Numbered from the whole stretch's first letter, positions 14,758-37,965 are shown. The stretch is DNA of 61,919 bases, filler included, from Jimgerdemannia flammicorona (GCA_003990765.1; 3 parts of 3 records of this genome joined end to end with filler, not necessarily neighbours in it), one strand, 5' to 3'. The notes: generated by a model from the sequence alone, not told the origin. Made by a program: numbers and translations.

Positions 14758-17206
14758 ATTCATTTCTTCTGTCATATCATTGGTTTGAGAGTAGTATGAT
14801 GTAGTTTGTTTGAGGCAGATCTTATAAAATTAAGCATAACTTATAATTATATTATTGATGAATTCTGTACCTCCATCAGAAATAAGTTCTTCTGGGGGTC
14901 TATATCTGAGTGTGAGACTATAGAGAAGACCAATAATAGACAAGATATTAGCAATTTATATTGAAAGAGTATTATATCATTTAGTCAGATATTCTATAAA
15001 TACTTAGATATATTTATTTCTTCTTAATATAATTAGTAGGTATTCAATAATATCTCCTTCTCATTTTTGAAAGATATGAACTAGTGGTGTGATTTATTAT
15101 AGTGGTACTTGATAGTTTTTCTTTTATTAGTACTTCTGCAGATATTATATTTCTTAAGTAGATCTTATACTTATATTCTGAAGTGGGGTCAGTATTGGTG
15201 TATTATTCATAGCCTTCTTCTATATTTACTAATTCTTGATAGACTTTTAGATATTCTTGTCAGATGAGGTCTTTTTGTACTTTAGTAGTTATAAAAACTT
15301 CCTTTTAGATATAGTTCCTCAGTATACTCTTTTTCTAGTTTATTGGAGTTAGTCAGAAAGTATATTAATATTATTGTGAGCTTTCTCTACTTTGTAGATA
15401 ATAGTGATTTTGTAATCCTATAGAATAAAGATCCAGTGGATAAGAATTTCAATAGATTTCTTATAGTTGAATAGCTATTTGAGAGCAGTATAGTCAGTTA
15501 TCAGAGTGAACCTTTTTTTAATAAGATAGTATTTAAATAAGATACTTACTTACATAATTATAAGGTATTTTAATTTAATGCTACTATAATTGATTTGCTA
15601 CTAGTTAGTAGCTTAGCTTATATAAGCTATTATATAGTACTACTGATTATATTTTTCTTAGACTAGAACTACTCTAAGGTCATCTTTAGAGATATTTATA
15701 TATAAGATAAATCACTTTTACAGATTGTATTATATAAGAATTAATTCTATAGTTATGTAGTACTTGAGTTCTTTGAAGGCTAATTCTTATAGTTCTATCT
15801 ATTTGGATAATATTTCTATCTTGAGAAGAGTTCAAATTGAGGCAGCAATTTGGACAAAGTTCTTAATAAATCTTCTATAATAAGACACTAGTATCAAGAA
15901 TGATAGTATTTCCTTTAAAGTCTTAGGTACTAGTTAGTTATTGATCTTCTTAGATTTCTTTGAATCTATATAAGTTTCTTCCTTAGAAATAATAAACCTA
16001 AGATATTTAAGTTTCTGTTTTCCAAAGTAGTATTTCTTAGTATTGAGTCTCAGATAGTTCTTATAGGTGAACTAAAAGAATTCTTCTAGATAATATAGAT
16101 ATTCTTCAAAATTTGCTGAATAGATATTAGAATTATCTATATATATAATTAGGCAGTAGTAAATCAGTAGGCCATAGACTGAGTTCATCATTCACTGAAA
16201 GATGGAAAGTGTATTGCAGATCTAAAGAATATTCAGAAGTATTCAAATAGAGTTTCTGGAATAAGAAAGACTGTTTTCTGAATATCTTTAGAGTCTATGG
16301 AGATTTTATAGAATTCTATAAAAAGATCTATACTGTTGAAGTATCTGGTATCTTGTAATTAGTCTAGAAGACTATTAATTCTAGATAAAGGATGGGCATC
16401 TTTTTCTGTCACTGAGTTGAGCTTTCTATAGTTTACACAAAGTTTCCATCCTCTTTTCTTAAGTATAATAAGTATAAGACTGGTCCAGGAGCTGGTAGAG
16501 GATCAGATAACTCTATTGTTTAAAAGATCCTGAATATTGTAAGAGGGTTGCTTTTTTAGGGTAACTATTACATAGTTCTGAAAAGGTTTTCTGGGTATTC
16601 TGGAAGACCAATTTCTTATGGTCAAGATCAATTTTGTATGGAGTACATCCTCTATGCTTATTGATTTCAAGATCGGGTTGATGTCTCAACCAAAGTCCTT
16701 TTTCAGACTAGTTCTGGATGTTCAGGATTTTCCATATTTCAGGAAGTTCAAGAAACTAAGACCAGCTTAGTTGAATTGGCATATCACTGCAGACAATACC
16801 CAATTAGGAAATTTCATGAGGGGGTTAGGAGTGGGACCTAACGGGGAGTGGATTTACTTAAGAGTAGTTTGTGGGTTATTAAATAGGTTTATTCACTATT
16901 CATGATATTGCTATACTAGGAGTAGTTGTGTAAAGGGATATTGTAGGGAAGTATTCAGAAATATTCTTGTGTGTTCGAGTCTGAGATTCTGAGGTCTGTG
17001 GGAGTGAGTATTTATACTAGTGAGGGGCTATCTGGACTATGCTGAATATAGATGTAGCACTAAGTACTTTGCTGAGTCAGAATGCAGTCACATAGTACCA
17101 AGTGTGATCTGATATGTCAAGAGATTGTCTGACCACTGAGTCAGTTCACAGTCATGTCGTACAAGGCTAATCTAACTATACTATGACTGCTAGGCTATTT
17201 ATAGGT

Positions 17207-18304
17207 TTAGGTGCTGTCTGGGTAGTCCTCGATGATATCACCATCGATTGCATCATCTCTGATGAAGTAGTCATCTAGGAAGAGTGGTTTGCGGATTACT
17301 TCTCCTTGTTCGCTGAGGTAATAATACATTGGAACTTCATCTCTATCCCACAGGATAGCATCGTCTGTCTCGTATGCTGGATAAGGTATTGGTGGGCGAA
17401 GGAGGGGTATATCATTTTCACTTTCATCAGATTCGCTATCTGCATATCTTCTGTAAGTTACAGCACTATGAGTTGCAGGATTGTAGTAAGCTGGTGGCTG
17501 TGGTTCATGTTACTCGTACTTAGGTGGTGGAGTGGTTGGTTCAGTCTCGAGGGTTGTCTGGAGGTACAGGTTGTGTTCTCTGGTCTCTTTATTGTAGTTG
17601 AAATAATTGGAGGTGAACATGGGTTGGTATTCATACCAGTGGTCATTGTCCCAATAAGTCTCATAGGCTGTTATGAATTGTTGTAAGTTCATTGGCAAGG
17701 TTTGTGGTGTGATCAGGGTTGGCAGAGATCCTTGGCTAGAGGTCATGTTGGCATCAGAGGGATCATTGTCTTCTGCTTCATCTTCATCAAAGTGGATTAT
17801 ATCATAGATATCTTTCATGGCGTATCCAACTTGGGGCATTTGCAGGATATGATCGTTGGGGTGTGGGAAGGTTCTGTCTGTAGTTTCGATGTACTCGAGG
17901 TACTTGTGGTTGAGTTCTTGTATTATGTCATTGATTTGGCCATAGGACAGGGTAGCAACCATTTTACTGGTAGTAACTCAGAGGTGGGGAATAATGGTAC
18001 TGTACTCATAGAAGAGTTCTCGATGTTTGCAAGCGATGAGCTTCTGATGTTGAGACATCTCGGTAATGTCTGTATCATAGTGGTGTTCGACCATGTCTTC
18101 CAGGAGGCGGCCGATCTGGTAGTAGCTTGAGATTTGTCCAATTCGGTTGGCCTCGCTAAGCATGTTCAGAGCATTCCAACAGGCTTCTATGAAGTAGAGG
18201 AGTACTAGGCTATGGATATTCATGAGGGGCAGAGGGAGTGTGGCTCAGTTGACAATGGCATTCCAAATGTCAGCATGGATGCAGGTATAGATCTTGGTGG
18301 TCAT
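17207..18304 (-). pseudogene. LTR-internal ORF A: reconstructed 365-aa protein of unknown function
   Basis: Single frame from ATG 18304 to TAA 17207 (366 codons), joining track ORFs 17978-18223 and 17510-17962. Only three internal stops (TGA 18245, TGA 17978, TAA 17510), each one C>T from CGA/CAA. No frameshift. Confidence 0.8.
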
Positions 18305-18361
18305 GTTTGTGTGTTTGGAAGTTGTGGTTGTTGTTTTGTTTTAGTTCTCTGATTTGACGCA

Positions 18362-18468
18362 GTATATATGCATTTGATCCTGATTGGTAAGATTCCATTT
18401 GTGTAGATCTTGTGTTCTGTGACTTTGTATTGACTCAGCTTTGTGCACTGTGACTTTGGTTTGACTCA
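18362..18468 (-). promoter_or_regulatory. Putative promoter of LTR ORF A (TATA-like, CCAAT, 2x TGASTCA in a 31-bp tandem duplication)
   Basis: CATATATA about 60 nt upstream of the ATG, CCAAT at 18383-18387, TGACTCA at 18431 and 18462. Confidence 0.5.
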
Positions 18469-20577
18469 GCTTCGTGATCGAGCAGGTGATTTCCAGATTT
18501 GTTCAGAGGTTGCATGTGATTTCAGTGGCTTGTTCAGAGGATGATATGTAATTTCGATAGCTTGGAGGTTGTGCGCTTACAAATATATTCCTTCTTGAAT
18601 ATCTTTGGATAATAAGGTATTCTATAAGGTTTCTGTCAGATAAGTATTGGATTTTCTGTATTTATACTATACATAGTAGTATATAGATTATATAGTAGAT
18701 TATATACTATAGTCTATAGTAAAAATGTCTTGATATTTATAAAGAGGTTCTGTGAGTTGCTACTATTACAATAGTGTCAATTCTTCTCTAATATTAGTAG
18801 AAGACTTTACTTTCTCCTGAGTTATAGAATGGTCTTTCTTATCTTTTATAAATAATTAACTATACTATACTTGATAAATAAAAGAGAGAGATGAAAGAGA
18901 GAGAGGAATATATTTCTAAAGGATATTTGAATACTAATATTATTTTAATATTATAAGTTTATATATAATATAATTATTAAAAAAATATCTCTAAAAAGAA
19001 AAATTACTATAAACTCCTTAATATCTCTAGAATAAAAGATTGCTATAAACTCTCTGATCTTAATCAATTTTAAAGCTTATAATAAAAATATATTAATAAC
19101 AAAACTTAGAAGATTATAAAAGATATATTTTATAATATTCTTAACAAAGTCATCAAAAGAGGTAATTTAAGCTTAAGATCTTATTATTCACAAAAATATT
19201 AGGACAAAAAAGCTTAGACAATCTGTCCAGCATTATCTCTAATTCTGCTCACAGAAGTAACTTCAACAGATAATTACAATTTATACTCAAAACTTAAAGA
19301 AAGATCTACAGTTCTATATTTATAAACTTTATACTTACTAGTAATTATCTAATAATCTATCTAGCTCTTGATATCAGAACTATAAATAAAAAAATTACAT
19401 ACTAAAGAAATAGTTGAAGAACTGCAAATAAACTCACATATCTAACTACTAATAATTACTATAGCTATCATAACTATAACTACTTAACTATAGTCACTAT
19501 AACTATAGCTACTATATATAACTATAATAGCTCCAATAGCCATAGTTAAAGAAAGACTATCTATGATAAAAAGATCCCAAAATATATCAGTTATATTTAC
19601 AATGAAAAAATCCCAAGATATATTTACTTAATTATAAATATTGATATCAGAACTATAAACAAAAGAAAAAATAGTGAAAAAAATAGTAGAAGAGAAAGAA
19701 CTATAAATAAACTTATATATCTGACTCTCAATGACTACCACAGCTCTGATATTTATAATAAAAAGATTCTAAAATATATCTTCTACTTAACTATGAATAT
19801 TGAGATAAAAGGAACAACTAATTCAACTAGAAGAGAGTAGTAAAAAATAATAGCAAGCTAATATATGACCAGTAGCTCCAGTAGTAGACTTTTATTTGAG
19901 TTTATAAAAAAGAGAAATATCTCTATAAAAACCAAGTAGATGTCTAGGTTTGCTCTTTAGACTCAGGTGTTTGTATCTTTTAAACCTAGTAAGTCAAAAA
20001 TTGATAAGATATTAAAGATATCAAGATGTTAGATATTTATAATAATGATAATATATTATGATCTACTCTACAGATACTCTTCAATATATAGTTATAATGA
20101 GATAGATACTAAGAATTTACAAAGACTCATTAGTTTTAGTCTCTCTTTTGACAATCTTATTTCAGAATAACTAAGACTTCTGTCAAAAAATAAAACTCTA
20201 TACAATATGTATAAGTATAGATATTCTAGCATATTTGTAATCTTATCAATAAGATTCATAGAAAGACTACTCTATGTCTCATTTAAACCTTTGATATAAT
20301 CATTATCTCTAGCTTTAACAGTGGTCAAATTTGAAAAAGAACTATAAAGTAAAAGATAAATAATAAGACAGTATATAAGATAATAATTTGGATATATAGA
20401 TAGTTTAGAGAGAGGCTTATATTAAAGATAGAAAAGTTCAGCAAACAGATAGTATTAGAGGTATATATTAGTAAAATAGCATTTTGTATAAATTCATTAA
20501 TAATAAATTAGAAAAGAAAAAAATCTTTTAGTATAAGGAAGATTGTGATCTCTCTTTTTTTTTTTTTTTTTTTTTTT

Positions 20578-20677
20578 NNNNNNNNNNNNNNNNNNNNNNN
20601 NNNNNNNNNNNNNNNNNNNNNTTAATTAATTAANNNNNNNNNNNNNNNNNNNNNNNNNNNNNNNNNNNNNNNNNNNN
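20578..20677. other. Assembly gap with artificial six-frame-stop linker
   Basis: N44-TTAATTAATTAA-N44. Confidence 0.98.
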
Positions 20678-20938
20678 GCAAAGCTCACCCTGCCAGACCC
20701 TTGACCTCCAGCTCTGCCCCCTCTTCCACCATGACCCCCCACCAGCAGGCCCCTCATACTTCCCCCCAAGCTGGGGCCTCTCCCCACTTGCTGCCATTCA
20801 AACACTTCAGGGCCACCCTGCTCAGTACGCACCTCTGGATACTTGTTGGTCGCCATACTACTAGTAGCTTTTCTCCAGAAACTGTGTTGAAAGTATTGCC
20901 AAAGGGTTGTGTAACCTGAATGTTACTGGAGAAAGGTG
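20678..20938 (-). mobile_element. 5' end (UTR plus ORF1 start) of a LINE copy, cut by the gap
   Basis: MATNKYPEVRTEQGGPEVFEWQQVGRG matches the ORF1 N-terminus MATDRQPEV..QGGPSTFDWQQVGRG. 5' motif CACCTTTCTCCAGTAACATTCAGGTTACAC. Confidence 0.9.
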
Positions 20939-21596
20939 TGAGATTCAGCACTATCACCTACTTGTGTCTTGTACTTGCATAGACTCTATATATATCTACT
21001 AACTTTGATAGATAATGATAAATTACCCATTCATTTCTTCTCTACATAGCTGAAATTCCATTGTTGGTCACTACAGTTATACAAATCACAGTAATATTTG
21101 CTGATTACTGATCAAATTACTATACTAAGAAAATACTATACATATATAAAGATGATATTAGTATTTTTTATTATCAGATACATAAATAAATTACATATAT
21201 TTAAACACTTACAGATTTGCCTTCACATTCAACAACCTTTCCATCAGTATTTTTTTGATTCTCAAAATTACATTTTTTATAAATATTGTTACATAGTGGT
21301 CGCTGAGTCCTTCAAATATGCCAGATTCTCTTCAAGGTGTATCTCTTAGACTAACTCAAGTTGTTATAAGCAAGTTCTTATTGGAGTGCCTTCTCAAGGT
21401 CTTATAGTCCTCAAACTTCTTATCTTTAACTATCTTGTTATCTCTTAGATTGCTTGCAAGAGATTGTGTATTATACTGAACTTGACTGATTTTATTCCAG
21501 AGGAAATAAGAGAGGTATTTATACAAAATATAATTTAATGGTTGCTAAGATATAAAGCTAAATATAAATTTCAATAACTAAAACTACTAAGTTCCA

Positions 21597-21724
21597 GAGC
21601 TGGCATTATTTAGTATCACATCAAAATACCAGTGCTGGAATAATTTTGCGTTACCTCAGAATACCAGTGCTGGCATTATCCAGTGTTACATGAGAATACT
21701 GGTGCTGGCATTATCCAGTGTAAC
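21597..21724. repeat. About 35-bp tandem repeat (3-4 units) in LTR B, between the ORF and the second TATA
   Basis: Repeated AATACCAGTGCTGGCATTATCCAGTGT. The equivalent array lies at about 36235-36330. Confidence 0.8.
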
Positions 21725-21731
21725 AAAGAAC

Positions 21732-22610
21732 TTAGAGCAGGAATTTCAGGACCATGGGAGCTTCATCATCATCATCATCGCTGAAGGAGATGAGATCTGC
21801 GAATTCATCATGTAGGTCATACGTTTTGCATACTTCGCATGCCTCGTCGCGCGGTTCGCATGCTTCGGGTATGTCACGTGGGATGACGTCATCGATGACG
21901 TCATCACGTTCAGCTGTGGCGGGGAAATTGGGAACAAGGTCTGGGGCTCTCCAGTCTATGAGGTTCTCTTCTACAAAATAAGGAACAAATGTGGGGTCTT
22001 GGGGAGATCTAACCTGGATGCTTGGGCCTTAGAATACTGAGATCAATCCTTACAGGAATTGGTCTGGGTTGTCCTGAAGAATAGGGTGCCAGAAGTCTTC
22101 TACTTCTTCACTGTTGAGGGTGATGGTGGACTGGACTTCTGTGGCTACCCTGGCTTCTAGTGCATTGATATGGTGGGATGACAGGTCTCTGAAGTCTGAG
22201 ACTCTAACATACTCCAAGTTGGGGATCGACCATAGTGCATGCCTGAAGATCTGATGGATCTTCTTTACTGTTCTTGCCTCACATAGGTCCATGGGAGTGG
22301 CATCTTGTAGCTCTTGAGGGCTGGCCTGTGGGAACTCCCGGCAGAGGAGGTTTCCTATTTCGTATTCCTACCACATTTGGAGGCATTCGGTGGCAATGGT
22401 GATCCTTGTTTCTATTTCGTGGCAGTAGAGAATGAAGTGATAGGGGTCTGTAGTACCCAGGTTGATACTAGAAGTCCTTCTTGAGCAGGTCCTCATAGCT
22501 CTTCTGATGTCTTGGAACATCATTTCCTCGACTGAGATACCTTGATAATTCCTTGACCTTGAGGTTTGGCGGGCAGCAGGTATTTTGTTTGTGGTAAGTC
22601 TTTGAGCTAT
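21732..22610 (-). pseudogene. LTR-internal ORF B: reconstructed protein of about 292 aa, unknown function
   Basis: One frame of 293 codons that includes track ORF 22050-22292. Start codon reads ATA (inferred ATG). Three internal stops: two are sense codons (CAG, CAA) in the 35-kb copy, and one TAA is shared by both copies. Acidic C-terminal tail. Confidence 0.75.
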
Positions 22611-22829
22611 TTTTGAGATTGGTGATTCTTGTTGGTTGCTGCTACTGTGGTTCCTTGATCCTTCTTTTATATTCTTCAGGATGCTTGTACTGTGGTCACA
22701 ATGACTTACAGTTGGTCATAATTGCTCATCTCATATACTGTATGATCTTCTTGTACTCTGATCTGGTGGCTTATAAAGAAAGACTGTCTCCTGTACTGAT
22801 GTCATCATTCTGGGGTCACTATTACAATA

Positions 22830-24374: not shown

Positions 24375-24574
24375 ATAAAAAACTCAGTTACATGAATTTG
24401 CATATGTATAAGCCACAAAAAATATGGTTGTCAAGGGGATTAGGGCCTTGCTGATTCTCAAAAAAGACCTCAATCTGGGTCCAGTTAGTCATGATGGACC
24501 CTGTACCTCAAGGTACTCACATGAACTTCAATTTTTTTTTTACAGCCAAATCAGCATACCTCAGTGACAAGAAT

Positions 24575-26050: not shown

Positions 26051-28247
26051 CGCTGTTATCTGAGCGAAGGGTTCATATTCTACATCCCATCTCGTTCTCC
26101 ATGGCTGCCTTAAATTCCCGGAATTTGTCGAATGCCTCGTTTTTCCCCGCAATGAAATATATGTGGACTTTGCATGTATAATCATTAATGAATGTAATAA
26201 AATACTTCTTTCTGGAGTGTGATGCCATTCGCATGGGGCCACAAATATCCGTATGAATCAAATCAAGAATGCCAGCCACTCGCTTTGTTCATTCCAGAAA
26301 AGGTTGCCAGGAAGCCTTGTTTATCGTGCATCCATCACAAAAGAAATCCGGTGGCATATAGTCCGGTAAACCATAAATGGACTTGCTCCTTATCATCCAT
26401 TCCAGGCTCGTTTTACCGATATGTCCTAAGTGTTCATGCATTATATGCCAAAAATCCTCTCCTGTCATAGTTGCAGAATATGCAGATGTAGTGCCACTCG
26501 GCATGCCATTGATTGCATATAGATTCCCCTTTTTCGATACATACATTAACTTCTTATTGTTCTTCAGATTGATTACTGTTACACCGTTCGGGCGTATATT
26601 TACTCCTCTGTCCCCATGAGCCATCATCTGGCCTATCGAGAAGAGGTTCTTGCCTATATCTGGAATGTATAGTATGTCTACAAAGGTGTCTGAAGATTCA
26701 TCAATGTTTCCATATAGATGTATGCCTACGTTGCCTTTTCCTTGAGCATAAATGATGTTATTATCACCTAGCTTGATAGGTATGAGATGCTCAAACTTCT
26801 CATATGTAGAGAACCACTCCTGGTGAGCCATCATATGCTGTGTTGCACCTGAATCCATGAGCCAGACCTCTTTGCTGCATGCATAAGCGCTGTTCGGCAT
26901 TTAGCTTATATTTGTGCTGGCGCCAACATTGACATCACTATTTTTCACTATCTGAAAAGTGTTTTGTTGACCAGAATTTGTAGATGTCGAACTGGTGGAA
27001 TTGCATCTACAACTGGCATTGGTGGAACTGGTGGTTGGTTCCGAATTTCCTCCTATTTCAATAGTTTCTGCATATGGATAGGTCACCGCTTCTGCGACGA
27101 ATAGACCTCCGCTACCACTGTTTTCATTGTTGGCATCCACCGTGTTTGCCTGCCATTGTCCTTGCTGTTGGCCACCCTTTTCCTTCTTCTTGCAGTTGCA
27201 GTCCTGCTCACGATATCTATGCTTATTATAGTAAAAGCATTTACTGTTGAATTTCTCGCATTGCTGGCCTCGACCTTTGTTTGGCTTGCCTTTGCCTCAT
27301 CCATGTGCTCTGCCATAGAATGCTTTCTTGTCATATTCCTCATTGGCATTGTTGCTGCCTAGCCTTGTTTCCTTGTTTAAAAGGCTTGTGACGACGTGCT
27401 TATAATCTGATAATCTGCCAGATTCCCTCATAGCAGTAACAACCACGTTGTATGCTTCAGGAAGGCCTTGTATAAGAGCCAGGACCTTGTCTTCATCCTT
27501 GATGGTGTCCACCAGCATAGATGTAAGGGAATTCAATTGATTCGCCAGCTCATTGACTCGATTGGTGTAGTTCCAGATGCTCTCCTTGGACTTAATTTGA
27601 AGATTAAATAGTTGCGCCTTTAAGTGGAATCTATTTGATGTGGATGCCTGTTGATAGTAATTGTGTAAAATCTCCCAGGCTTTATTCGCTGTCATAGCAT
27701 TGATTACCAGCTTCATTTGCACATTCGAAAGGGTGAATGTAATCTCCCTTAGCACTTTGCGATCTTTCGCGGTGTCATATATTGTTACTTGCACCTGTGG
27801 CTTCCAGTAGTCCTCCAAACCACATTCTTCTAGGAGATTCTTCATATGGTATGCCCATATGGCATAGTCCTTACCGTCAAAGACAGGAATCATCCTCTTT
27901 ACTGTTGACGTTGGCACCACTACCAGAATGTTTGTCATCATGGAAGTGAAACCCATTCCAGCTGTGTTTGTGTTCATGTTACCAGAACTTGGCGGCACAC
28001 TGCTAGCACTGCTTGAACTAGTAGCCATTGTATAGCATAGTGTAGCATATGTGTAAGAGGGGTGTATAGCTGCTAACCGGGGCTTATAACTTTTTGTTAT
28101 AGAATACTTAGAATGGAGGGAGAAGCATTCTGTTTATTGCTAATTCTTACGCGCTTTTACATGTTGCAATTAGTGACATTTACATGATGACGTAGTCAAG
28201 GAAGGCTGCGCCACCATATATCGAGTTGTAACCTACATATTTCAATA
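26050..28247 (-). mobile_element. Ty1/Copia LTR retrotransposon, 5' half (LTR-PBS-gag-PR-IN), truncated in integrase
   Basis: Gag FDGKDYAIWAYHMKNLL...LIQGLPEAY, degenerate CCHC, protease WLMDSGATQHM, pre-integrase HLGH..CDGC, integrase LIHTDICGPM..YFITFIND..TLRSDN. LTR of about 153 bp at 28095-28247. PBS relic (G)GTTAT(G)AGCCC at about 28079-28091. Confidence 0.93.
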
Positions 28248-28249
28248 GA

Positions 28250-30205
28250 TAGTAATATTGACTGACTATATAGCCATACTCACTCAAGCTCTTTGTCTTA
28301 GTATTGAAACAAATAAGCCCACAAAAGACCTCTGTCTCACCTCATTCAAAGATAAAGTAGACCAAGTAACAACATTCATAGAGCAAGTTAATACTAATTA
28401 CTATGTTAATAAATGAAATAATAATTAAAATCCCAACAGTACTCTCAATAATAATATGTATTATAAGATTGAAGATCTCTATACAACTGTAGGCTCATAA
28501 GTAGAAAAGATTACCATACACTTCACAGGCACAGCTGCTCAGTAGTGGTACAACCTACTGGTATACCTTCTTATCTGAGAAACTCATACTGAAATTAATA
28601 TTTTTTTTTTTTTTTTTTTACTGAAATTAATATAAGTGAAAGAGATAATAGTCACTCTAACTATGAAGACTACCCAGCTACCATTGGTCTAAAAAAGCTA
28701 ATTACTCAGCAGTTCTGTAGCTCTGCCCATATTACCAAAGTCAGAACTAAGCTTAAAAATCTATAATTCTACAATAATGAAAAAGAAGATCTTGAAGTAT
28801 TTACTATAAGACTGAAACCCCTTCTATATATAATAGGATCAGAATATAGCTAATGAGAACAAACTGTAAATAGAATCTGAGCTGTCTCTTTTTCAATACT
28901 ATCTCTGGATAGTTATTAGAAAAAAATCTATAAATGAAAATGACTCCATAATTGTCTACATACATAAGCAATAGAGCCTAGAACAAGTTGTTACTAGAGC
29001 ACACACCATCCTTGTAGTCCAAAGGTCAAGAGATAACAGAAATAATAATAAAGAAGACAAATAATACCAATTCAAGAAGAAGTATGAACTCCAGAATGAG
29101 TTCTCAAGCTTACAAAGAGGATTCAAGAACTATCTAATAAGAAAATAAAAGAACTTATAAAGAAGAGAGTATATTTCTACTATAAGAAGAGAGGATATAT
29201 ATCCTGTGAATGCTCTGACAAATAGATCAATATGAATAAAAGACTATCTTCCTCATATATTATTACTATAATAGGAGATGATTTTAAAGAAATCTCTGAG
29301 AAAATCAAGGTTAAGAGATTCTACATTACTGTAAAGATCTCACACAAAGTATATAAATCTGATACTAGTTACAATCTCTATTCTAGCATAGAAGTAATTA
29401 TTGAATCAGACAAGTAAGTAACTATTAGCACAGATATTAAAATGGGAGTCTTCAAAAGAACCTATATCTGTCTTATTGAAAGGAGTAGTTTGGCCAAAAA
29501 AGAGAGACTCTATAGCTAGAGGATTTATAGACTAAGGATTCAAAGGTAAGATTAAGGTCCCACTATACAATACTGAACAAAAAACTATCAAAATTATATA
29601 TAGAAAACAAATTGCTCAAGCCATTATTGAAGTAATATGCAATGATCTTTGAAGTAGAAGAAACAAATAAACTATCACTCTCTGATAGAGGAGAAAAAGC
29701 TTTTGGATCAATATAAAAACACCCTGATAAAGCCAAGGAGAAGACCAAGATATAGAAGATTGTCTAAATCAAAGAACCTCAAGACTGAGATCAGTATATT
29801 GCTAATAGATATATTCTTATAGGATAATATTCTTATAAAATTAAGATATACTGTTTCTATATATTCTTGAATCTAAGAAGTACAAAATGATCATCTCAGA
29901 ATAATGGAATAAAGAAATCAAGAACATCAATGATAAAGATAGTGAAGCATAAGATTGGAAAGAAGAAACTATCTCAGAAGTAATTGCTGCTTAATAAGAA
30001 CCCAATATAAAATGTATCTACCTTTAAGGAAAATTAAAGGAAACTCTGTTGAAGTTCTTATCAACAGTAGAGCAAGTAAGTATTATCTCAACAAAGAAAC
30101 TGCTGATAAATTCCACCTTAAGATACAGAGAAACTAAAAAGGAAACATTGCTATATTTAGAAATAGAACAATATAAAACTCTCTAAAATATACAAGAATG
30201 TACTC
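28250..30205 (+). pseudogene. Ty3/Gypsy gag-protease relic
   Basis: Degenerate zinc knuckle at about 29170-29218 (CFYCxxxGHxSxEC after reverting G>A/C>T). Protease relic VEVLINSRAS (= VLIDSGAS) at about 30048-30078. Confidence 0.6.
28587..28633 (-). mobile_element. Pure poly(A) insertion (poly-T on + strand) with a 13-15-bp TSD
   Basis: (T)ACTGAAATTAATA(T) repeated on both sides of a 19-T run. Confidence 0.8.
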
Positions 30206-30299
30206 CTATAACTCAGAAACTATATCATAAAGCAAACCTTCTACATTATATATCTCTTTAGATATAATCTCATCCTTGAAAAATCCTGACTTACTTAGG

Positions 30300-32050
30300 A
30301 GAATTTCCATATCAATTAGAAAACCAATATCTTCTTTAGTAATAGATCTCTTTGATTCTGCTGGTATACTGATAGCAATCATTGACATGCACTATATAGT
30401 ACATTCTGATCTCATAGAGACAGACTTCTTATAGTATATATCTTTCTATAATCTTCTTATATAGTCTTCTTCACTCATCTATCTAATCTTCTTTTTATTT
30501 TTCTAAGTAGGTATTATATAAGCCTCTTCATACTTACTCTTTTTCTTCTATTTTAGATAGGACTCCTTTGTTGATATTGATGGAGATTTATATCTTCTGT
30601 CTATAGTAAATAATCTATATCTTCTATTCATTTAGATCAATTATTGCTCTAACTTTGTAAAGCTATTAGTTGCTAATAAGGATGTTATAATTAATTATAT
30701 TAGTTATGATTATATCTACTAAAATAGTTACTTCTCCAAACTTGATAGAAATATCTCAGATCTTTCTCAAGAGTATAGCTCTTATACTATTTGCTATAAT
30801 AAATACCAACTTGGTCACTTCTTCAATCTCTCAATCTAGGCAGTCTGCTGCCTTCTTACTGAGAAGATATTCTTCTACTCTAGTATCAATAATGGCTTTA
30901 AAGACTCTATCTTCAATCTGACAGATTGCATAAACAGAGGTCTTATGATTGCCTTCACTTTCTTCTCTAGAGTCTTTTTGAACATTATTAGCCTCAGTTA
31001 TCTTCCAGCCTTGATTCTTAGTTATCTTGACAAGTCCAAATCTCATTTACTGTCTAAATATGAGAATTTCTACCAACTGGCCAAAGGTTGTATTAACCTT
31101 TTATTGGCTGAGATCCTTGAAGATATTATACTTAACAATCTTAGTCTTATGAAGCTTCTTCTCCTTTTCTCTCTCACTAGCTAGAGTAGTTTCTTAAATG
31201 ATATATCTTAAATAGTCTATTTCAACTCTATATCTTAATCTAATTCTTCAACTTGGCTTTCTGTAATAATTTCTATATACTTTTCTACTGAGTTCTTCTT
31301 AAGTCTCTCTGGTAATCTCTTATAGGGTTTCTTATAAATATCCTTCTTAGTGATTTGAGTAGGTCTTCTATTTTTCTTCATCATCTCTAATTTCTTTAAA
31401 GGTGATAGTGTTGGCCTACTTCTTATTTTGAGTAGTATTGCTTGGCTGGGTCTTATACTTGGTCTCAATTATATATTCTTATAAATAGTAGCCTTCTTCT
31501 CTACAGATATAGTAGATATATATCTCTCTTCTTATATAAGGTAATAGCAAACTTCTAAACTGTGCAACAGTCAATTTCTCTGATTTTCTTTAATATTCTC
31601 TTAGATAGAAAGTCATTTTGATGAACTTCTTAGCAAGTTTCTCTATAGAGTCACTATTTCTCTATTGTTCTATAGCTTTTGATTATAGTGTGTTTCAATT
31701 GACTATTGTGATAAAGATTACACTAGTCATCTTGAGTGTTTTGATTCTGATTCTAGTGACTCTTCTATTATATAATCTTGTAAATATCTGGCTATCCAGT
31801 ATTGCTGAGCATAAGTGATCTTCTATAGTAGATCCAGGACTACTGGTAATGATCAGATGGCCATACCTATCTCTGAATAAATTCCTTTTATAAAGATTGC
31901 TTTGGCTACTTGGTCTTGAATAGCATTAGTATAATTAATATAAATTATCTGATATTGAATTCTAGTGTAGAATATGTTTGAATCTTCACTCATTTCTTAG
32001 CATATTATATTGAGCTAATCCTTTAAAACTTTCTTGATCTCATCTATATA
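30300..32050 (-). pseudogene. Gypsy gag-PR-CysHis relic, related to the family B element
   Basis: Gag relic (QLN...EDSN.FYTRIQYQI....QVAKAIFIKG) matches the gag at 36808. Protease FKAIIDTR (= IDTG) at about 30880-30905. Cys/His motif relic at 30343-30422. Confidence 0.75.
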
Positions 32051-32059
32051 TATAGTATA

Positions 32060-33210
32060 TAGTTTGAAGTCAGGTCTTTTGTACTACTAGTAATAGCCTT
32101 TTTGGAGTATTCATATCCTTGTCAGGACTTCTTAAGTTGTTTGGAGAAATAGTTTCTTCTAAAAGAATTATATCAAAGTAGTCAGCAATCAATATTGCTT
32201 CTTTAATAGTATTTGGATTTTATAGTTCTACTTCTCATCTATTGTGATCCTTAAGTTCTTATATATATCTGTCAAGTTTTTTTACTTTGCTGATATTGAC
32301 AATCTTCAAAACTGTACTCATGAAGATAGTAGTATATATCTTAACTAATTCTATTTATCACAGAGATACCAACTTATCTCTGACTATCTATTTTGAGTTG
32401 ATAGACTTGAACTACTATATAAGTTGATCTTGAAACTTATCTCAGTCTGAGAGGTCCTTCTTCTTATCTCTGACTATTTGGACTTTCATTTTTTACCAAA
32501 TAGCTAATCTTCTCATAGTAGTATTTCTGTATAAGCAACTAACTTCTCATTGATATATTCATTATTGCCAATTATTGATTCATATTGAATAGCCAGGTTT
32601 CAACATTATTACTTCTTCCATTATAGGGTTCAGGTAGCAGTAACTTGAGGTGAGTCTTTTTGTCTTTAGTAAAGGGGCCTACAGTTAGTCTTTTGTCTTT
32701 AGAACCTAATATCACCTCTATTGCTTATATTTTTACTTATGCCTCCTAATAGGCTTGCATCAGCTATACTATTTATTCTTGAAGCTATTATATATCTTCT
32801 GCAAACATCATGATATTGAAAAGAGTTTGTACTAGTAAGGAGATGAGATTTAACTTTGCTGCTACTATTAATTATAATAAATATAGAATAATTATACAAG
32901 AGTAGTTCAATATAGTTAAGTCAGATGAAACCTGAGACTTAGACTATATGTCAGCAAATGTCCAAATAGAAATATATAACTAGATTTAAGAAATAGAACT
33001 TGAGAAGTTTAATTGTCTTCAGAAGATTTGAGTAAATATACAATAACTAACTAGACTGTCTTTAGTGAGATATTTTGAGGAAGTATTTATATAGAAGAAA
33101 TAGAAAGAAGAGGAAAGAGATAGAATATTACTAAGTTAGATACTAAGTAATAAGTTATACTTAGTGAAACTTAGTAGAATATTATAGAGAGTTACTAAGC
33201 TATTATAAAG
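32060..33210 (-). mobile_element. Chromovirus-family 5' LTR (partial), PBS and gag relic
   Basis: About 32870-33205 is homologous to LTR 8886-9420. It is followed by TAGTAGCAG (a decayed TGGTAGC iMet-type PBS) and gag-like decayed coding sequence. Confidence 0.65.
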
Positions 33211-33689
33211 AGAGACATTTTATTGAAGTTGTATAGATCACATATTTCTCTACATTACTGATGAATAAAATAAATCTGATAAAATAACATAAGGTTACAT
33301 GCTGGTATATTGAGTTGCTATCCTAATACTTCTGCTCAATAAGATATATAACTCAAAAGAATACAAACTAGAATAGAAGCAAACTAGAGTAAACTAAATA
33401 TGACTAATGGAATACTATCTAGATAACTACAGAAGGTTAAATTTCTCTACTTATAAGCATAAAAATAGGTAAAGAATATAGTAAAAGACCAGTAATATAG
33501 AAATTTTTATTGGTCAAAAAGTGTTCCAAAATATATCCAAAAAATACCCTTAGGTGAAGAATGTGAAGAATATAATATATATCTACTTATAGATGAGAGA
33601 TATAATCAACATAAATGTCAAATATATATGTAATATATAATACAATAAGAGAGGCTTTTTGCAGCCTGAAAAATATCCTATAATTAACT

Positions 33690-34340
33690 ACTAGATTGGT
33701 ATATAGCTTGTAAGATCCAATCCTTTAGTATATTGTTCAAATTTTGGCTTTAGAAGGGCTTTGGTCAATAAATCTGTAATCATACACTCTGTGGAAATAT
33801 ATTCCAGATATATTGCACCAGTTTATATATATTAATGTATAAAATAATACTATATATTAATATGTTTTATTCTGCTATAATGTACTAGATTCTTAGTAAG
33901 TACAATTATAAACTAGTTATCTTGGTATAGTATAGTGGTTTCTTGTATAATACTAAGCTTCTTTAATAGTTTACAGAGATATATAGCTTCCTTTATTATC
34001 AATGATAAAACCTGATATTTAGCTTACATAGATGATATTGCAATAGAGAATTACTTATATATTTGCCATAAGATAACAGACCCTTTATCATCTTCACCAA
34101 TGTGAAAGAGATATCCAGTAGTAGACTAGTGATCATTTAAGTCTCTGGTCCAATCAGTATTATATGTATCAGATAGCCAAATACTATTACTCTTGCTATT
34201 TTTCTTACCATTGCTCTTGCTTAATCTAATATCCTCACCCAATATAAGTATATAGTATGCTGATCTCTTTAAGTATTGGAAAATTCTCTTAATAGTACTC
34301 TAATATAAATTATCATAGTAGGAGGAGTACTGACTTAGGA
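33690..34340 (-). pseudogene. Ty1/Copia RT C-terminus and RNase H relic
   Basis: Relics of KRIFQYLK, Y.(D)xDWxxDLND..STTGY, LYQDN, KHI(D)I.Y(H)FI, ITDLLTKAL. Confidence 0.8.
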
Positions 34341-35380
34341 AGAATATCTGTTCTATAGTCACTACTAGGAGATTGTGAGCCTGGTTTTCTTTTCTACTCT
34401 GATTCACTTTCTAATATAAAGAACAAGTCCAAATTCAAGAGTATTTGCTATCCAAATTTAAGTAAATAACTTCACTACTCTTTGAGTAATCTGCTACTTA
34501 AGAAAAAAGGTATCATTTTTAAAAAGAAGTCTACTATCTTACTATAAAACCAGTCTTTTGATATAACTTTACAGTAAAGTCAGTCTCTTTTGATATAACT
34601 CTACATAAATAAAGTCCATCTCTGATATAACTTTGCTCAAGAAGTCTGTTATTCTGAAATAAATTACTAATTTAGAAAAAATCTATATAATTTGAAAGTT
34701 ATCTATCATTTTGAGAAGTCTACTAATTCAGAAAGAATCTGCATCACCTGCTAAAACTGAGTTCTTTATCAAAATTACCAACCTACTGGTTATTAAGAAA
34801 ATCCACCAAATCAACTATACTATATAAGATAATTATGCAGAAATTACATACTTTTGAAAATCATGCTATATTGAGAAATTATCATTTGCTCAAGAAGGAA
34901 GCTGCTAATTTCCCAGACTATTCTGCATAAGAAAGCCACTCATACTATATATACAAATTATCACTTATACCCAGGAACTCATCTCAATAAGGAAATTGAC
35001 TACTATATCTAGATTTGACTATTATACTACTAAATATCAACAAAGATACCAAAAATCATTAAACATTTTATTACATTTAACAAAGTAACTGAGAGCTCAA
35101 GCCAGACTATATAGTCACTCAATCTTGTAATTTATCTTTATTGAGCTAGTATGTTATAATATATAAATATTGTAATGGTGACTCCAGAATGATGACATCA
35201 GTACAGGAGATAGTCTTTCCTTATAAGCCATCAGATTGGAGTACCAGAAGATCATACAGTATATTAGATGAGCAATAATAATCAACTATAAGTTATTGTA
35301 ACCACAGTATAAGTATCTTGAGGAATATAAAAGAAGGATCAAGGAACTGCAGTAATAGCAACCAACCCACCAATCCCAAA

Positions 35381-36224
35381 ATAGCTCAAAGACTCACTAC
35401 AAATGAAATGCCTGCCACTTACCAAACCTCAAGGTCAAGGAATCACTAAGGCATCTCAGTTGTTCCAAGACATCAGAAGAGCTATGAGGACCCACTCAAA
35501 AAAGACTCCTAGTGTCAATCTGGGTACTAGTGACCTTTATTACTATATCCTCTATTACCATGAAATGGAAACAAGAGTCACCATTACTACCAAATGCCTC
35601 CAAATGTAGCAGGAGTACGAAATAGGAAACCTCCTCTGCTGGGAGTTCCCACAGACCAGCACTGAAGAGCTACAAGATGCCACTTCCATAGATATATGTG
35701 AAACAAGGATAGCTAAGAAGATCCATCAAATCTTCAGGCATGTACCATGGTCAATCTCCAACTTGGAGTATGTTAGAGTCTCAGATTTTAGAGACCTATT
35801 ATCCTGCCATATCAATGCACTAGAAGTCAGGGTGGCTACAGAAGCCCAGTCCACTATTACCCTCAATAGTGATGAAGTAGAAGACTTCTGGTATCCCATC
35901 CTTCAGGACAACCTAGACCAATTCCTGTAAGGATTGATCTCAGTATTCCAAGGCCCAAGCATCCAGATTAGACCCCCCTAAGACCCTATATTTGTCCCTT
36001 ATTTTGTAGAAGAAAACCTCATAGATTGGAGAGCCCTCAATTTCCCCACTGCCAAATGTGATGACATCATTGGCAATAACATCATCCCACATGATATACA
36101 CAAAATGCATGACCTACATGATGACAATGATGAGACAGATGAGATGTTTACAGACCTCATCTCCTTCGAAGACATCCTGACCTCTGATGATGAAGCCCCT
36201 ATGGTCTTCACCATTCTGCTCTAA
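35381..36224 (+). pseudogene. Second copy of LTR-internal ORF B, in the 5' LTR and sense to gag-pol
   Basis: Colinear with 21732-22610. Retains ATG at 35408. Has an 11-nt frameshifting deletion near 35460 and further small indels. TATAAAAG at 35326 upstream, GTATAAATAC at 36451 and AATAAA at 36479 downstream. Confidence 0.75.
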
Positions 36225-37544
36225 GTCTCTTGATTACACTGAATAATACCAGCACTGGTATTTTGATATAATACAGAATAATGCCAGCATCAGTATTCTG
36301 ATGTGACACCAAATTATACCAGTATCCTGAATCTGTACAACCATCAGTACTGACCCTGGAACTTAGCAGTTTTTCCTGTCCTGGTATTTTATTTTAGTTA
36401 TTGAAATTTATATTTAGCTTTATATCTTAGCAATCATTGAATTATATTTTGTATAAATACCCCTCTTATTTCCTCTGAAATAAAGTCAGTTACAGTTCAC
36501 TTATACACACTTCCTTGCAAGCAATCTAAGAGATAACAAGATAGTTAAAGATAAGAAGTTTGAGAACTATAAGACCTTGGGAAGGCACTTCAATAAGAAC
36601 TTGCATATAACAAACTTGAGTTAGTCTAAGAGATATACCTTGAAGAGAATCTGGCATATTTGAAGGACTTAGCGACCACTACATGATAACTTGGTACCCA
36701 TTGGCTGCTGATTCAAGATGAATCCCTCACTTTCAAGCTGAAAAACGAACAACTCCACAACAACTACCCTGACTACAAGAGTTACCCCTGCAAGAATTCA
36801 AGACAAGATGGAAATATATCCCCCCACATTCTATGGATATACTACTGAAGAGTCAATCCTGACCTTTATTGAAGACTTTGAACAATTTGCCACCATACAA
36901 GTCCTTAGTGTGGATGCACAATTGGCCCTTCTACCAGTCAGCCTCAGAGGACCTACCAGAGACAAGTTCAATACAGTCACTATTGCTGATAATGGTACAG
37001 CCAAACTTGCCAACATGAAGGCCTTTCTCAGAACAACATACTATACTGAAGAGATCAAGCAAGCTCTCAAGAATCAACTCAATACTATCTGCCAGGGACT
37101 TAGTGAAGATCCCAACTCATTCTATACCCGAATCTGCCACCAGATTGTCTTGGCTGGCTATTATGATACTCTCAAGAAACAAATAGCGAATTCAACCTTC
37201 CTTAAAGGAGTTCTACCAGACATAGAGGAAGGAGATGAAGAGGACACAGAGGTCTTCATACACTCAGTGAACAAGAATAAGAACAAGACACCCAAGCTCA
37301 CAGATGAGCAGTGGTACAACAAGATTGTCAATGGCTATGGCCCTCAAGGAAGATGCCCCCATGGTACTAAGATGTACTGCTCTGAACACCTGAATGACTG
37401 CTGGTCCTGTATCAGTGAAGTCAGGAAAATCTGCCAACAGAAACATGAGCAAGAAGCTGCCAAAGCAAAAAGGAAAGCCAAAGAAAATAACCAGCCCCCA
37501 GAGCTTCAGGCTGACAGTGATGATGAGGAGGAATAAGAATCAGA

Positions 37545-37965
37545 CATTACCCTCAAGGTCAAGAAGTTTCACCCCAAAGCTAAGATCCCAGAATATAAGA
37601 CTGAAGGAGCCATAGAAATGGACCTTGTCAGCATTCAAGATACTACCCTTGAACCACATACCACCACCCTACTTGGCTCTGGAATTGGAGTCAAGTTGCC
37701 AGAAAACTATGCCAGAATTATCAAGACCAGGAGCAGTCTGGCCAAAAGTGAAATCTCAGTTGAAGGAGGAGTAATTGATTCTGATTATACTGGCAAGATC
37801 TTTCTCATAGTCAGAAATCACAACCCCATCACCCCATTTGAAGTCAAGAAGTATGACAAGATTGGCCAGATGCTGATCTATGAAATCAAGAAACCCAAGA
37901 TCACTGAAGCCATCAAACTCATCAAAACCAAGAGAGGAGAACAAGGCTTTGGATCTACTGGAAGA
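37545..37965 (+). pseudogene. Retrotransposon-encoded trimeric dUTPase domain
   Basis: All five motifs are recognisable: (A.)xMDL, RSSL, GVIDSDYTG, KIGQML, RGEQGFGSTG. In frame with gag upstream and RT downstream, apart from single C>T stops. Confidence 0.92.

Follow-up and report, generated by a model that had tools for sequence, protein, structure and literature searches.

Two long terminal repeats (LTRs) of retrotransposons, LTR A and LTR B, each very probably hold a decayed copy of one and the same accessory gene family. They are found in the window, i.e., the whole stretch of 61,919 nucleotides from Jimgerdemannia flammicorona (GCA_003990765.1; three parts joined with filler) analyzed here. 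The best overall explanation, to which we would assign a probability of roughly 0.55, is an accessory gene located in the U3 of both LTRs, whose product has an N-terminal domain common to the two families and would act as a regulator in trans. Extra genes are known in LTR retrotransposons and U3 genes are known from a few retroviruses. In the full-text literature, which leaves subscription journals mostly outside its coverage, the precedents for an ORF in U3 were retroviral cases only, and none was found among non-retroviral LTR retrotransposons for a protein-coding gene inside the LTR itself. Here, one gene is common to two LTR families devoid of similarity at the DNA level.

The LTRs and the elements they belong to

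Both repeats are real LTRs of retrotransposons, and the coordinates, anatomy and status (solo or attached to gag-pol) that had been proposed for them were correct. The features of LTR A and its surroundings are the following:

9822..10148, minus strand: second LTR A-like copy, a fragment with the R-U5 part only and without the ORF part
15412..16445, minus strand: mutated Gypsy RT/RNase H, insertion host of LTR A (matched by pol pieces of element B in tblastn, E 1e-9 to 6e-7)
16533..16537, no strand: target-site duplication ATATT, right copy in element orientation, pairs with 18582-18586
16538..18581, minus strand: LTR A, 2044 bp, solo, ends TGTAAG...CTTACA (sequence reading)
17009..17016, minus strand: main TATAAATA box of LTR A, 3' of ORF A (motif reading)
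17207..18304, minus strand: ORF A, 365 codons plus terminal stop, three internal stops (codons 20, 109 and 265)
18363..18368, minus strand: TATATA, a TATA-like motif ca. 60 nt before the start codon of ORF A (motif reading)
18410..18564, minus strand: pair of tandem-repeat blocks 5' of ORF A (31 bp x2.2; 32 bp x2.1)
18582..18586, no strand: target-site duplication ATATT, partner of 16533-16537

The termini of LTR A are of the TG..CA type and the 5-bp ATATT directly adjoins them at either end. In all four soil-metagenome runs, contig depth inside 16540-18600 was in the hundreds to thousands, compared to about 0-13 outside, with sharp edges at 16540 and ca. 18600. The recurrent loose contig ends beyond 18581 in the soil metagenomes consisted, in element orientation, of a purine tract directly before TGTAAG. 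The internal region of this element was absent from the window, and the proposal that A and B stand for two different retrotransposon families is tentative as far as A is concerned. The fragment at 9822..10148 was 79.5% identical to 16589-16914 over 327 nt. An AATAAA is located at 16888-16893.

LTR B is a unit of ca. 1.53 kb present twice, with an identical 5' boundary and imperfect inverted termini, TGTAAT(A/G)GTGAC... and ...CACTATGTAACA:

21287..22826, minus strand: LTR B1, solo copy with ends TGTAAT...TGTAACA
21618..21725, minus strand: 35-bp unit repeated in tandem (x3.1) around a dyad GCCAGCACTGG core, located after the ORF B1 stop and before the main TATA
21732..22583, minus strand: ORF B1, ATA at the start codon and three internal stops
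22664..22671, minus strand: TATAAAAG, 88 nt before the ORF B1 start
35171..36688, plus strand: LTR B2, 5' LTR of a Ty3/Gypsy element
35408..36224, plus strand: ORF B2, ATG retained, 11-nt deletion giving a frameshift after codon ~20
36452..36484, plus strand: main TATAAATA (36452-36459) and AATAAA (36479-36484) of LTR B2
36742..37533, plus strand: gag frame of element B (internal region 36742..39791)
37537..38229, plus strand: dUTPase of element B (E 3e-26)
up to 39166, plus strand: RT/RNase H of element B (RT_RNaseH_2, 4.6e-17)
39561..39791, plus strand: integrase zinc domain of element B (Integrase_H2C2, 9.4e-14)

LTR B2 is followed by TTGGTACCC... (PBS-like, TGG) and then by gag-pol, i.e., it occupies the position of a 5' LTR. 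The window contains no 3' LTR for this element, nor any element flanked on both sides by LTRs of type A or of type B, and the ORF was never seen in both LTRs of one element. The flanks of B1 share only the 4-nt ATAT, weak as a target-site duplication in AT-rich surroundings. In LTR B1 the main TATA was read at 21516-21523 and AATAAA at 21491-21496. The two copies were 80.8% identical over ca. 1570 nt, and transitions accounted for 162 of the 213 differences. Identity was not higher in the ORF (84.8%) than in the remaining parts of the LTR (86.3% and 86.8%).

Decayed ORFs with intact relatives

ORFs A and B are sense ORFs that follow the LTR start and precede the main TATAAATA/AATAAA. By position they would belong to U3, with the U3/R border taken from motif readings in AT-rich DNA. 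The main frame of ORF B2 is 35448-36224 and has three stops, while residues 1-271 of protein P0005 map to 22583-21735 in ORF B1. All three copies in the window are dead, owing to stops of the transition type, the loss of the start codon (B1) and a frameshift (B2). The proteins had originally been aligned after reversion of C>T stops. All nine internal stops fall at positions where intact relatives have Gln (6), Arg (2) or Trp (1).

These relatives are rare. Only five cluster representatives were found among 1.84 billion metagenome proteins, all the matches being short contigs that bear just the one protein, and no free-standing cellular homologue was found among them. Intact ORFs of 247-342 aa occur in relatives that are 29-83% identical. 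P0014 is an intact relative of the N-terminus of ORF A (81% identity) and P0009 of its C-terminus (62%). A more distant relative, L001, codes for a protein 42% identical, and its stop codon is directly followed by a purine tract and TGTAAT, i.e., this ORF appears to finish just 5' of a PPT/LTR start. In some lineages the gene may thus not be part of the LTR, and the idea that homologues always sit within LTRs becomes doubtful.

The N-terminal parts of the A and B proteins are probably homologous

LTR A and LTR B did not match at the DNA level (blastn, word 7, E<=1e-3), as had been noted by eye. At the protein level, the damaged window copies compared alone gave no significant similarity by BLASTP (E 0.17) or by Smith-Waterman, in which 131 of 1000 shuffles were as good (best z 1.2), and shallow profiles were not significant either. 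The by-eye alignment of the original prediction was therefore at chance for the damaged pair, but its register was recovered, with significance, once intact relatives and profiles were included. The comparison of eight family B with three family A sequences by hhalign aligned 124 columns with E 0.0014, with a probability of just 18-38% by the program's own estimate. Restricted to the N-terminal parts, the comparison scored 28.9, and none of 300 column shuffles reached it (mean 11.8, sd 2.4, maximum 21.4). In the same way, a profile built with HMMER from the B N-terminus placed the intact family A sequence P0014 at rank 1 of 5002 with 17.4 bits, compared to 11.5 bits for the best of 5000 shuffles. 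The damaged window copy of A by itself came at rank 9 of 5002, and these two sequences are all that represents the family A N-terminus. With MAFFT the A sequences fell in a register identical to that of hhalign and of the first alignment. As a negative control, the gag of element B scored 11.6 with the B profile (E 0.68). These results support homology of the N-terminal ca. 125 residues of A and B. The significance of this relationship derives from the intact relatives and the profiles.

The C-terminal tails resemble each other by composition alone, their likeness in sequence not being significant (18 of 200 shuffles reached the observed score). Both had been described as acidic and Pro-rich, and indeed their net charge ranges from -16 to -35, with 7-12% Pro. 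K+R amount to 4-7% and W/F/Y/L/I/M to 27-30%, values that fit an acidic activation region by composition alone. The tail is thus family-specific, strongly acidic, proline-rich and dotted with hydrophobic residues. The N-terminal domain common to A and B, of some 125-165 residues, is predicted to be all-helical and the tail disordered, although structure prediction was weak (pLDDT 33.7 and 59.7) and recognition by the protein language model low. A basic N-terminal run is present in B and missing from A in the MAFFT alignment.

No Pfam family was matched by the seven intact members at E<=1, the PDB sequence search gave no match, and the best hit among viral predicted structures with Foldseek had E 0.4. 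No capsid, nucleocapsid, envelope or enzymatic domain was recognized by Pfam, the profile comparison with the element's own gag or hydropathy, and neither fold nor family searches gave any pointer to DNA binding or other activity. Intact members lack a membrane segment (maximum 19-residue hydropathy <=1.05). Judging from its sequence, the protein is soluble and unrelated to gag, pol, env or named families, in agreement with the expectation that the ORF was not a gag, env or host fragment.

Selection on the ORF

The differences between B1 and B2 were distributed as 39/29/53 over the three codon positions, a third-position excess. Their dN/dS was 0.35, compared to 0.63 +/- 0.13 in neutral simulations with transition and transversion counts matched to those observed, of which 3 in 500 gave values as low. 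Conservation was blocky rather than uniform, with conserved blocks alternating with variable linkers. Together with the ORFs that are still intact in relatives down to ~40% identity, this supports the view that the frame has been kept open by purifying selection in active lineages, as the original prediction of selection on the protein had proposed.

A possible regulator and the alternatives

Some motifs, read in AT-rich DNA, hint at a promoter for the ORF itself. LTR A makes up 3.3% of the window and has four of its seven TGASTCA sites. They are found as two pairs, one before ORF A (18431 and 18462, in the first tandem-repeat block) and the other before the main TATA (17073 and 17137). In family B and L001, TATAAAAG is found 88 nt (B1), 82 nt (B2, 35326-35333) and 80 nt (L001, 296-303) before the start codon, a spacing that is maintained in spite of the L001 protein being only 42% identical. 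From these motifs we infer a gene that is driven by a separate promoter within the 5' part of the LTR and ends at the LTR's poly(A) signal. The promoter would consist of tandem repeats with TGASTCA sites plus the TATA-like box in LTR A, and of TATAAAAG at 80-88 nt upstream of the start codon in B and L001. With its own promoter and the LTR poly(A) signal, any LTR, solo LTRs included, would potentially be a transcription unit. The product would act in trans on element expression, in its simplest form as a regulator whose acidic tail is of the activation type, within a circuit in the manner of the foamy-virus Tas/internal promoter. We regard a trans-acting regulator with its own promoter as a tentative proposal. 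More speculative still, and rather unlikely in its complete form, is an LTR that would be a self-contained gene, in which the 5' promoter drives the ORF, the LTR poly(A) ends the mRNA, and the product regulates the main LTR promoter or the copy number in trans, with the many solo LTRs that persist once elements are lost still feeding a family-wide circuit. This would be a regulatory gene in the style of complex retroviruses that evolved independently in retrotransposons of a soil fungus and shifted across the LTR boundary (outside in L001, inside in A and B).

The product might, instead of activating transcription, block host silencing or mutation, or limit the family once its LTRs become numerous, in the manner of p22 of Ty1. 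The gene is located where retroviruses hold host-interaction genes, each further LTR copy would raise its dose if solo LTRs retain it, the window copies are found in a region rich in transition mutations, and the family is fast-evolving and lineage-restricted. However, no domain, motif or fold ties it to silencing, deaminase or capsid-binding function, and there is no likeness to the element B gag, as a p22-type inhibitor would require. We consider this role unlikely. A still less probable one is that of an RNA-handling adaptor for the export or packaging of unspliced element RNA, similar to Rev/Rem or to CERV of the C. elegans element Cer1. For the latter, PMC10309623 documents an accessory protein needed for nuclear export of the genomic RNA, a precedent that together with the 3'-terminal position of the accessory ORF in a Ty3/Gypsy-type element, and with a helical domain followed by a disordered tail, would speak for it. 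Yet the whole protein is acidic, no arginine-rich RNA-binding stretch is conserved family-wide (the basic run of B being missing in A), and there is no evidence of splicing.

The ORFs might also lack any function, as leftovers or by-products of constraint on U3 DNA or RNA, with the A/B likeness due to convergent composition or chance. The non-significant pairwise comparison, the DNA identity no higher in the ORF than elsewhere in the LTR, and the poor structure prediction and language-model recognition would fit, but shuffles never reached the observed profile scores (0/300 and 0/5000), frames of 247-342 aa are still open in distant relatives at 29-47% identity, and the third-position excess, the dN/dS below neutral simulation and the conserved blocks among variable linkers speak against it. 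We regard it as improbable. LTR retrotransposons capture host sequence, and a host gene fragment without a role for the element could have been transduced into the LTRs, either on two occasions or on a single one before the families diverged. The lack of relatives among known retroelement proteins would agree with this. Against it, metagenome contigs provided the protein alone and no free-standing cellular homologue, and its position and orientation are alike in two DNA-dissimilar LTR families, which points to a long shared descent of gene and elements. We consider this origin very improbable.

If the accessory gene in U3 is expressed from the LTR, solo LTRs would be dispersed copies of a trans-acting gene and not inert scars, and the modelling of LTR copy number, silencing and element regulation in repeat-rich fungal genomes would have to be altered. 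In any case it adds a protein family without known fold or relatives, whose small size suits expression, reporter and structure work.

Comparison with known systems

Element B, with its dUTPase between gag and RT, is similar to the dUTPase-bearing Ty3/Gypsy elements of fungi (Postia, Phanerochaete, Tuber), on record in basidiomycetes and Tuber in passages of PMC2864245. Unlike here, the main-text passages of that source mention no LTR-borne ORF. The additional ORFs of LTR retrotransposons (the fungal "add. ORF", bdelloid ORF3, Botrytis brtn) are also non-gag/pol genes on the 3' side of Ty3/Gypsy elements. In the relevant parts of PMC2864245, PMC5408684 and PMC8365987 their function is given as unknown or non-canonical, and one ORF type may recur across element lineages, e.g., the bdelloid ORF3 types. 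In those same parts they are placed between pol and the LTR, or in antisense (brtn), whereas the ORFs of LTR A and B are inside the LTR, and the bdelloid ORF3 types have recognizable enzymatic or env-like domains that the LTR A/B protein lacks.

By position, as sense ORFs in U3, the ORFs of LTR A and B belong with the retroviral accessory genes sag, nef and bel, although no kinship in sequence or fold with their proteins was detected in Pfam (seven intact members), the PDB or the viral structures. MMTV sag is likewise a complete sense ORF inside U3, so that every LTR bears the gene. Sag is a type II membrane glycoprotein of a virus with a mammalian host, while the protein described here has no membrane segment, shares no sequence or Pfam family with it and comes from a soil eukaryote. 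In foamy viruses the accessory genes tas/bet at the 3' end reach into U3, a second promoter, separate from that of the LTR, is located upstream of them, and the activator Tas has an acidic C-terminal activation region. No similarity to viral structures accompanies this parallel (best Foldseek E 0.4) and the resemblance is in layout only, with TATA, ORF, repeats and a second TATA following one another in the LTRs, and an acidic tail in the protein that they encode.

Open reading frames inside the LTRs

We have found a small unnamed protein family that two LTR families, without DNA similarity to each other, each encode in U3 on the sense strand, and the finding is real and goes beyond chance. 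The LTRs and their reading frames are the following:

16538–18581, minus strand: LTR A
17207–18304, minus strand: ORF A, 365 codons, three internal stops
21287–22826, minus strand: LTR B1
21732–22583, minus strand: ORF B1, three internal stops, ATA at the start position
35171–36688, plus strand: LTR B2
35408–36224, plus strand: ORF B2, ATG kept, an 11-nt deletion, three internal stops

All nine internal stops correspond to Arg, Gln or Trp in intact relatives, which fits the regional transition bias (162 of the 213 differences between B1 and B2 are transitions). In all three copies the ORF starts some 240–280 nt from the 5′ end of the LTR and ends upstream of the main TATAAATA box and AATAAA, i.e., the LTR's own promoter and poly(A) motifs. 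By its position it therefore lies in U3, the U3/R border being a motif reading. ORF B1 also contains a perfect 24-nt palindrome (21882–21905), formed by GATGACGTCATC twice with a CRE-like TGACGTCA core, that falls in the acidic “DDVIDDVI” coding stretch and is absent as such from B2.

Two LTR families in a nest of retroelements

Both units proved to be real LTRs, A by its TG..CA ends and ATATT flanks and B by being a repeated unit with a gag-pol neighbour. In the element orientation LTR A begins with TGTAAG and ends with CTTACA, has ATATT on either flank, and splits a mutated Gypsy RT/RNase H, which extends further below 16537 (tblastn matches at E 1e-9 to 6e-7). It is thus a solo LTR whose insertion duplicated 5 bp of target. 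Contigs from four soil-metagenome runs, belonging to four studies, were placed on 16400–20577, where LTR A was the only one of the LTRs covered. Their summed depth was hundreds to thousands over 16540 to ca. 18600 and about 0–13 outside, and these sharp limits indicate that the 2-kb LTR A unit, ORF included, is a high-copy repeat with these borders. Recurrent loose contig ends past 18581 (three contigs in run X3; one in X4 and two in X7 starting slightly further in) carry a purine tract immediately 5′ of TGTAAG in the element orientation, which looks like a 3′ LTR beside a polypurine tract. An empty-site-like joint (16526>18587) was set aside, since it is supported by a single contig that reaches only 20 nt on one side. 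In all four runs the R-U5 end of LTR A (16540–16960) had about 2–3 times the summed depth of the ORF-bearing part (17000–18600), and a second LTR A-like copy in the window (9822–10148) retains the R-U5 end only; LTR A variants devoid of the ORF may exist.

LTRs B1 and B2 share 80.8% identity over about 1570 nt and have a common 5′ border, TGTAAT(A/G)GTGAC, with imperfectly inverted termini. Directly 3′ of LTR B2 come TTGGTACCC and a gag-pol region, making it a 5′ LTR. Its 3′ LTR was not found within the window, and thus the window shows no element in which both LTRs contain the ORF. Relaxed tblastn in the window, for an internal region of element A and for a tandem partner upstream of LTR B2, gave weak, non-collinear matches only. 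Between LTR A and LTR B no DNA similarity was detected even at word size 7, which agrees with the lack of obvious similarity noted originally.

The window as a whole is a nest of decayed retroelements, as seen by self-comparison and by a Pfam scan of 214 ORFs (134 + 80) taken from stop to stop in the standard code:

1–5800, 44919–52276 and 52283–56759: three copies of an RT-bearing repeat element (self-comparison and Pfam)
26292–28133, minus strand: Copia gag-pol remnant
36742–37533, plus strand: gag frame of element B, the Ty3/Gypsy element attached to LTR B2
37537–38229, plus strand: dUTPase of element B (Pfam, E 3e-26), directly between gag and RT
up to 39166, plus strand: RT/RNase H of element B (Pfam)
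39561–39791, plus strand: integrase zinc domain of element B (Pfam)

In the ORF pieces of element B that were scanned, Pfam gave no aspartic protease domain. The RT-bearing repeat, a third family, has an RVT_1 match (E 6e-27) at 1286–2449 on the minus strand. Its GC content is close to 0.52, and its two strands are very unequal in composition, with a GC skew of about −0.45 or +0.37. A segment of ca. 1.45 kb (44919–46371) is repeated in inverted orientation at 50831–52276, the order being segment, body, inverted segment, inverted body, which points either to inverted repeats at the termini (DIRS-like?) or to a head-to-head rearrangement. The dinucleotide indices of the AT-rich stretches of the window (GC 0.23–0.31) are of the kind that repeat-induced point mutation typically leaves, and LTRs A, B1 and B2 show a mild effect only. 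Upstream of LTR B2, the AT-rich DNA retains faint dUTPase remnants (29304–29710, plus strand, E 0.08–0.18) and B-like gag pieces about 1.3 kb apart (30345–30569 and 31868–32056, minus strand, E 8e-15 and 5e-4), all of them pieces of elements that are nested and strongly mutated. Runs of 44 N occur four times (20578–20621, 20634–20677, 41253–41296 and 41309–41352), in two pairs with 12 bases inside each; the first pair is preceded by a 23-nt T run and the second comes just past the integrase part of element B. No matches were returned by Rfam or tRNA scans of the whole window.

Relatives in metagenomes

A word-indexed search of 5.8 billion clusters found five relatives of ORF B and, for ORF A, one relative of each part. 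P0014 is intact and covers the N-terminal 128 aa at 81% identity, and P0009 covers the C-terminal 247 aa at 62%. A HMMER profile of four family-B proteins run against 1.84 billion representatives gave five proteins at E ≤ 0.001, P0012 (342 aa) and P0013 (200 aa) among them, both diverged members of the family. The nine relatives that were looked up all belong to metagenome sets of JGI/IMG or ENA, their contigs being no longer than the 4848 nt of that of P0012, and were at most named “hypothetical protein”; several are intact ORFs of 247–342 aa. Viral contigs scanned with family A gave 59 pattern matches and no relative, and metagenome contigs scanned with family B gave 93 pattern matches and a single one, on contig L001.

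The L001 ORF is intact (291 codons, 42% identity to family B), and its DNA resembles that of B1 only in a stretch that opens 40 nt upstream of the start codon and takes in the N-terminal domain. Immediately 3′ of its stop codon come 12 purines in a row, then TGTAATAAG, in close likeness to the purine tract plus TGTAAG of the LTR A start and to the TGTAAT of the LTR B start. The simplest reading would be that in this lineage the gene comes last among the internal ORFs and stops at the polypurine tract, while in A and B the LTR boundary lies upstream of the gene. The position of the gene relative to this boundary may have shifted in evolution, to judge from one short contig and a motif. With an ORF that seems to end at such a tract, the idea that homologues always sit within LTRs probably does not hold across the whole family. 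The 5′ end of L001 (1–20) reads TGGTAC... and resembles the PBS-like TTGGTACCC that follows LTR B2 (36689–36705); should this prove to be a primer-binding site, the contig could represent the complete internal region of a small ORF-only element, PBS-ORF-PPT-LTR.

Homology between ORF A and ORF B

The alignment of the two proteins, originally made by eye, does not stand out from shuffled controls with the window copies alone but does so once intact relatives and profiles are used. The window ORFs gave E 0.17 in BLASTP and a Smith-Waterman score inside the shuffle distribution (best z 1.2, 131 of 1000 shuffles as good), and shallow profiles matched in the tail segment only (E 0.06). Once the diverged B members and the intact N-terminus of A were included, hhalign placed B 1–127 on A 9–133 (124 columns, E 0.0014). 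The score of these N-terminal parts was 28.9, a value reached by none of 300 column shuffles (mean 11.8, sd 2.4, maximum 21.4), and the reversed control gave 13.6. In an independent test, the HMMER profile of the B N-terminus scored P0014 at 17.4 bits, rank 1 over 5000 self-shuffles (best shuffle 11.5 bits), and the damaged window ORF A at 8.5 bits, rank 9. As a negative control, the B profile against the gag of element B scored 11.6 (E 0.68). In a MAFFT alignment the family-A sequences fall in the hhalign register, and the invariant or nearly invariant columns (Y.I...L of the YEIG/YQIG block, the A of AKK/ARK, F, IP and LS) are the landmarks that had been picked out by eye. From these comparisons we put the probability that the N-terminal domain is homologous between A and B at about 0.85.

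The C-terminal halves are another matter, as their comparison was not significant (18 of 200 shuffles as high as the observed score). Both tails are acidic and Pro-rich, as described at the outset (net charge −16 to −35, K+R 4–7%, Pro 7–12%, bulky hydrophobics 27–30%), but the likeness of their sequences did not hold, and composition alone is what they have in common. A shared “RDDVIDD”-type acidic motif, seen by eye and in a shallow profile, was dropped for this reason. A PPxY-like “PPAY” of window ORF A and P0012 was also dropped, since it is conserved in neither family.

Coding constraint and protein properties

That conservation implies selection, as first argued, is supported by several signs of constraint but not by DNA identity. 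Conservation in family B is blocky, with long invariant runs between variable linkers, and the reading frames of the relatives stay open down to about 30–45% identity. Over 249 aligned codons B1 and B2 differ 39/29/53 times by codon position, with a Nei-Gojobori dN/dS of 0.35. A neutral simulation (the observed numbers of transitions and of transversions scattered at random, 500 runs) gave 0.63 ± 0.13, and 3 of the 500 runs were as low as 0.35; 53 third-position changes were likewise reached in 3 of 500. On the other side, the B1/B2 DNA identity of the ORF (84.8%) is not above that of the flanking LTR parts (86.3 and 86.8%), a comparison that mixes old divergence with recent mutation. Among the 40 best-supported of 481 differences in LTR A metagenome sequences, 32 are internal to the ORF with codon positions 11/5/16, at most a hint in the same direction as selection.

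Seven intact members and the three window copies matched no Pfam family at E ≤ 1 except for a chance-level defensin match (E 0.18), and the ORF matched no gag, env or host family. PDB profile searches gave no match in one case and two at E 0.08 in the other, none of note, and no membrane segment was found in the protein. AlphaFold2 with four sequences produced an unusable model (pLDDT 33.7). With the joint A and B alignment of 12 sequences (mean pLDDT 59.7, pTM 0.56) the N-terminal domain is predicted to be all-helical, with helices between residues 21 and 152. This model had no match at E ≤ 0.001 in PDB by Foldseek (best E 0.85), none at Z ≥ 5 among 48,161 chains by VIA-align (best Z 4.4) and a best E of 0.4 in BFVD. 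The best ESM Atlas values, 0.86 (P0004, a metagenome relative) and 0.92 (part of P0012), were to unnamed mixed-domain clusters and provided no lead.

Regulatory layout and possible role

Four of the seven TGASTCA sites of the window are in the 2-kb LTR A, where about 0.35 are expected per 2 kb (window shuffle mean 10.65). They form two pairs:

18431 and 18462: inside a 31-bp tandem repeat, upstream of ORF A
17073 and 17137: between the ORF A stop and the main TATA

Read as motifs, a TATA-like TATATA lies ca. 60 nt upstream of the ORF A start codon, and TATAAAAG precedes the start codon by 88 nt in B1, 82 nt in B2 and 80 nt in the distant L001. Between the stop of the family-B ORF and the main TATA there is a 35-bp repeat (3.1 copies) with a dyad core. 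This arrangement suggests two promoter modules per LTR, the first one for the ORF. With this putative promoter and its own downstream AATAAA, the LTR, even solo, could be a complete transcription unit.

We infer that the gene is an accessory gene of the A and B retrotransposons. Our preferred working model for the product, itself a doubtful one, is a trans-acting regulator of element expression, which would be made from the first promoter within the LTR and would act through its acidic, hydrophobic-studded tail. Foamy viruses have a Tas/internal-promoter arrangement, and the likeness to it is one of layout only. The position of the gene would be equally well accounted for by a counter-defence or copy-number factor, or by an RNA export/packaging adaptor such as the one described for Cer1, CERV (PMC10309623).

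Accessory ORFs of LTR retroelements are known. In full-text literature, mostly outside subscription journals, our search found ORFs in U3 from retroviruses only, chiefly MMTV sag, and extra ORFs of retrotransposons only outside the LTR. As far as the accessible text of these sources goes, fungal Gypsy elements have an “add. ORF” of unknown function outside the LTR (PMC2864245), bdelloid retroelements have ORF3 types common to unrelated lineages, also outside (PMC5408684), Boty-like elements have the antisense brtn gene, outside as well (PMC8365987), and the account of Podospora crapaud describes variable 5′ halves of LTRs and makes no mention of an LTR ORF (PMC10787394). Like element B, Gypsy elements recorded in Postia, Phanerochaete and Tuber bear a dUTPase (PMC2864245). 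What sets the ORFs of the window apart is their placement within the LTR, as in a few retroviruses.
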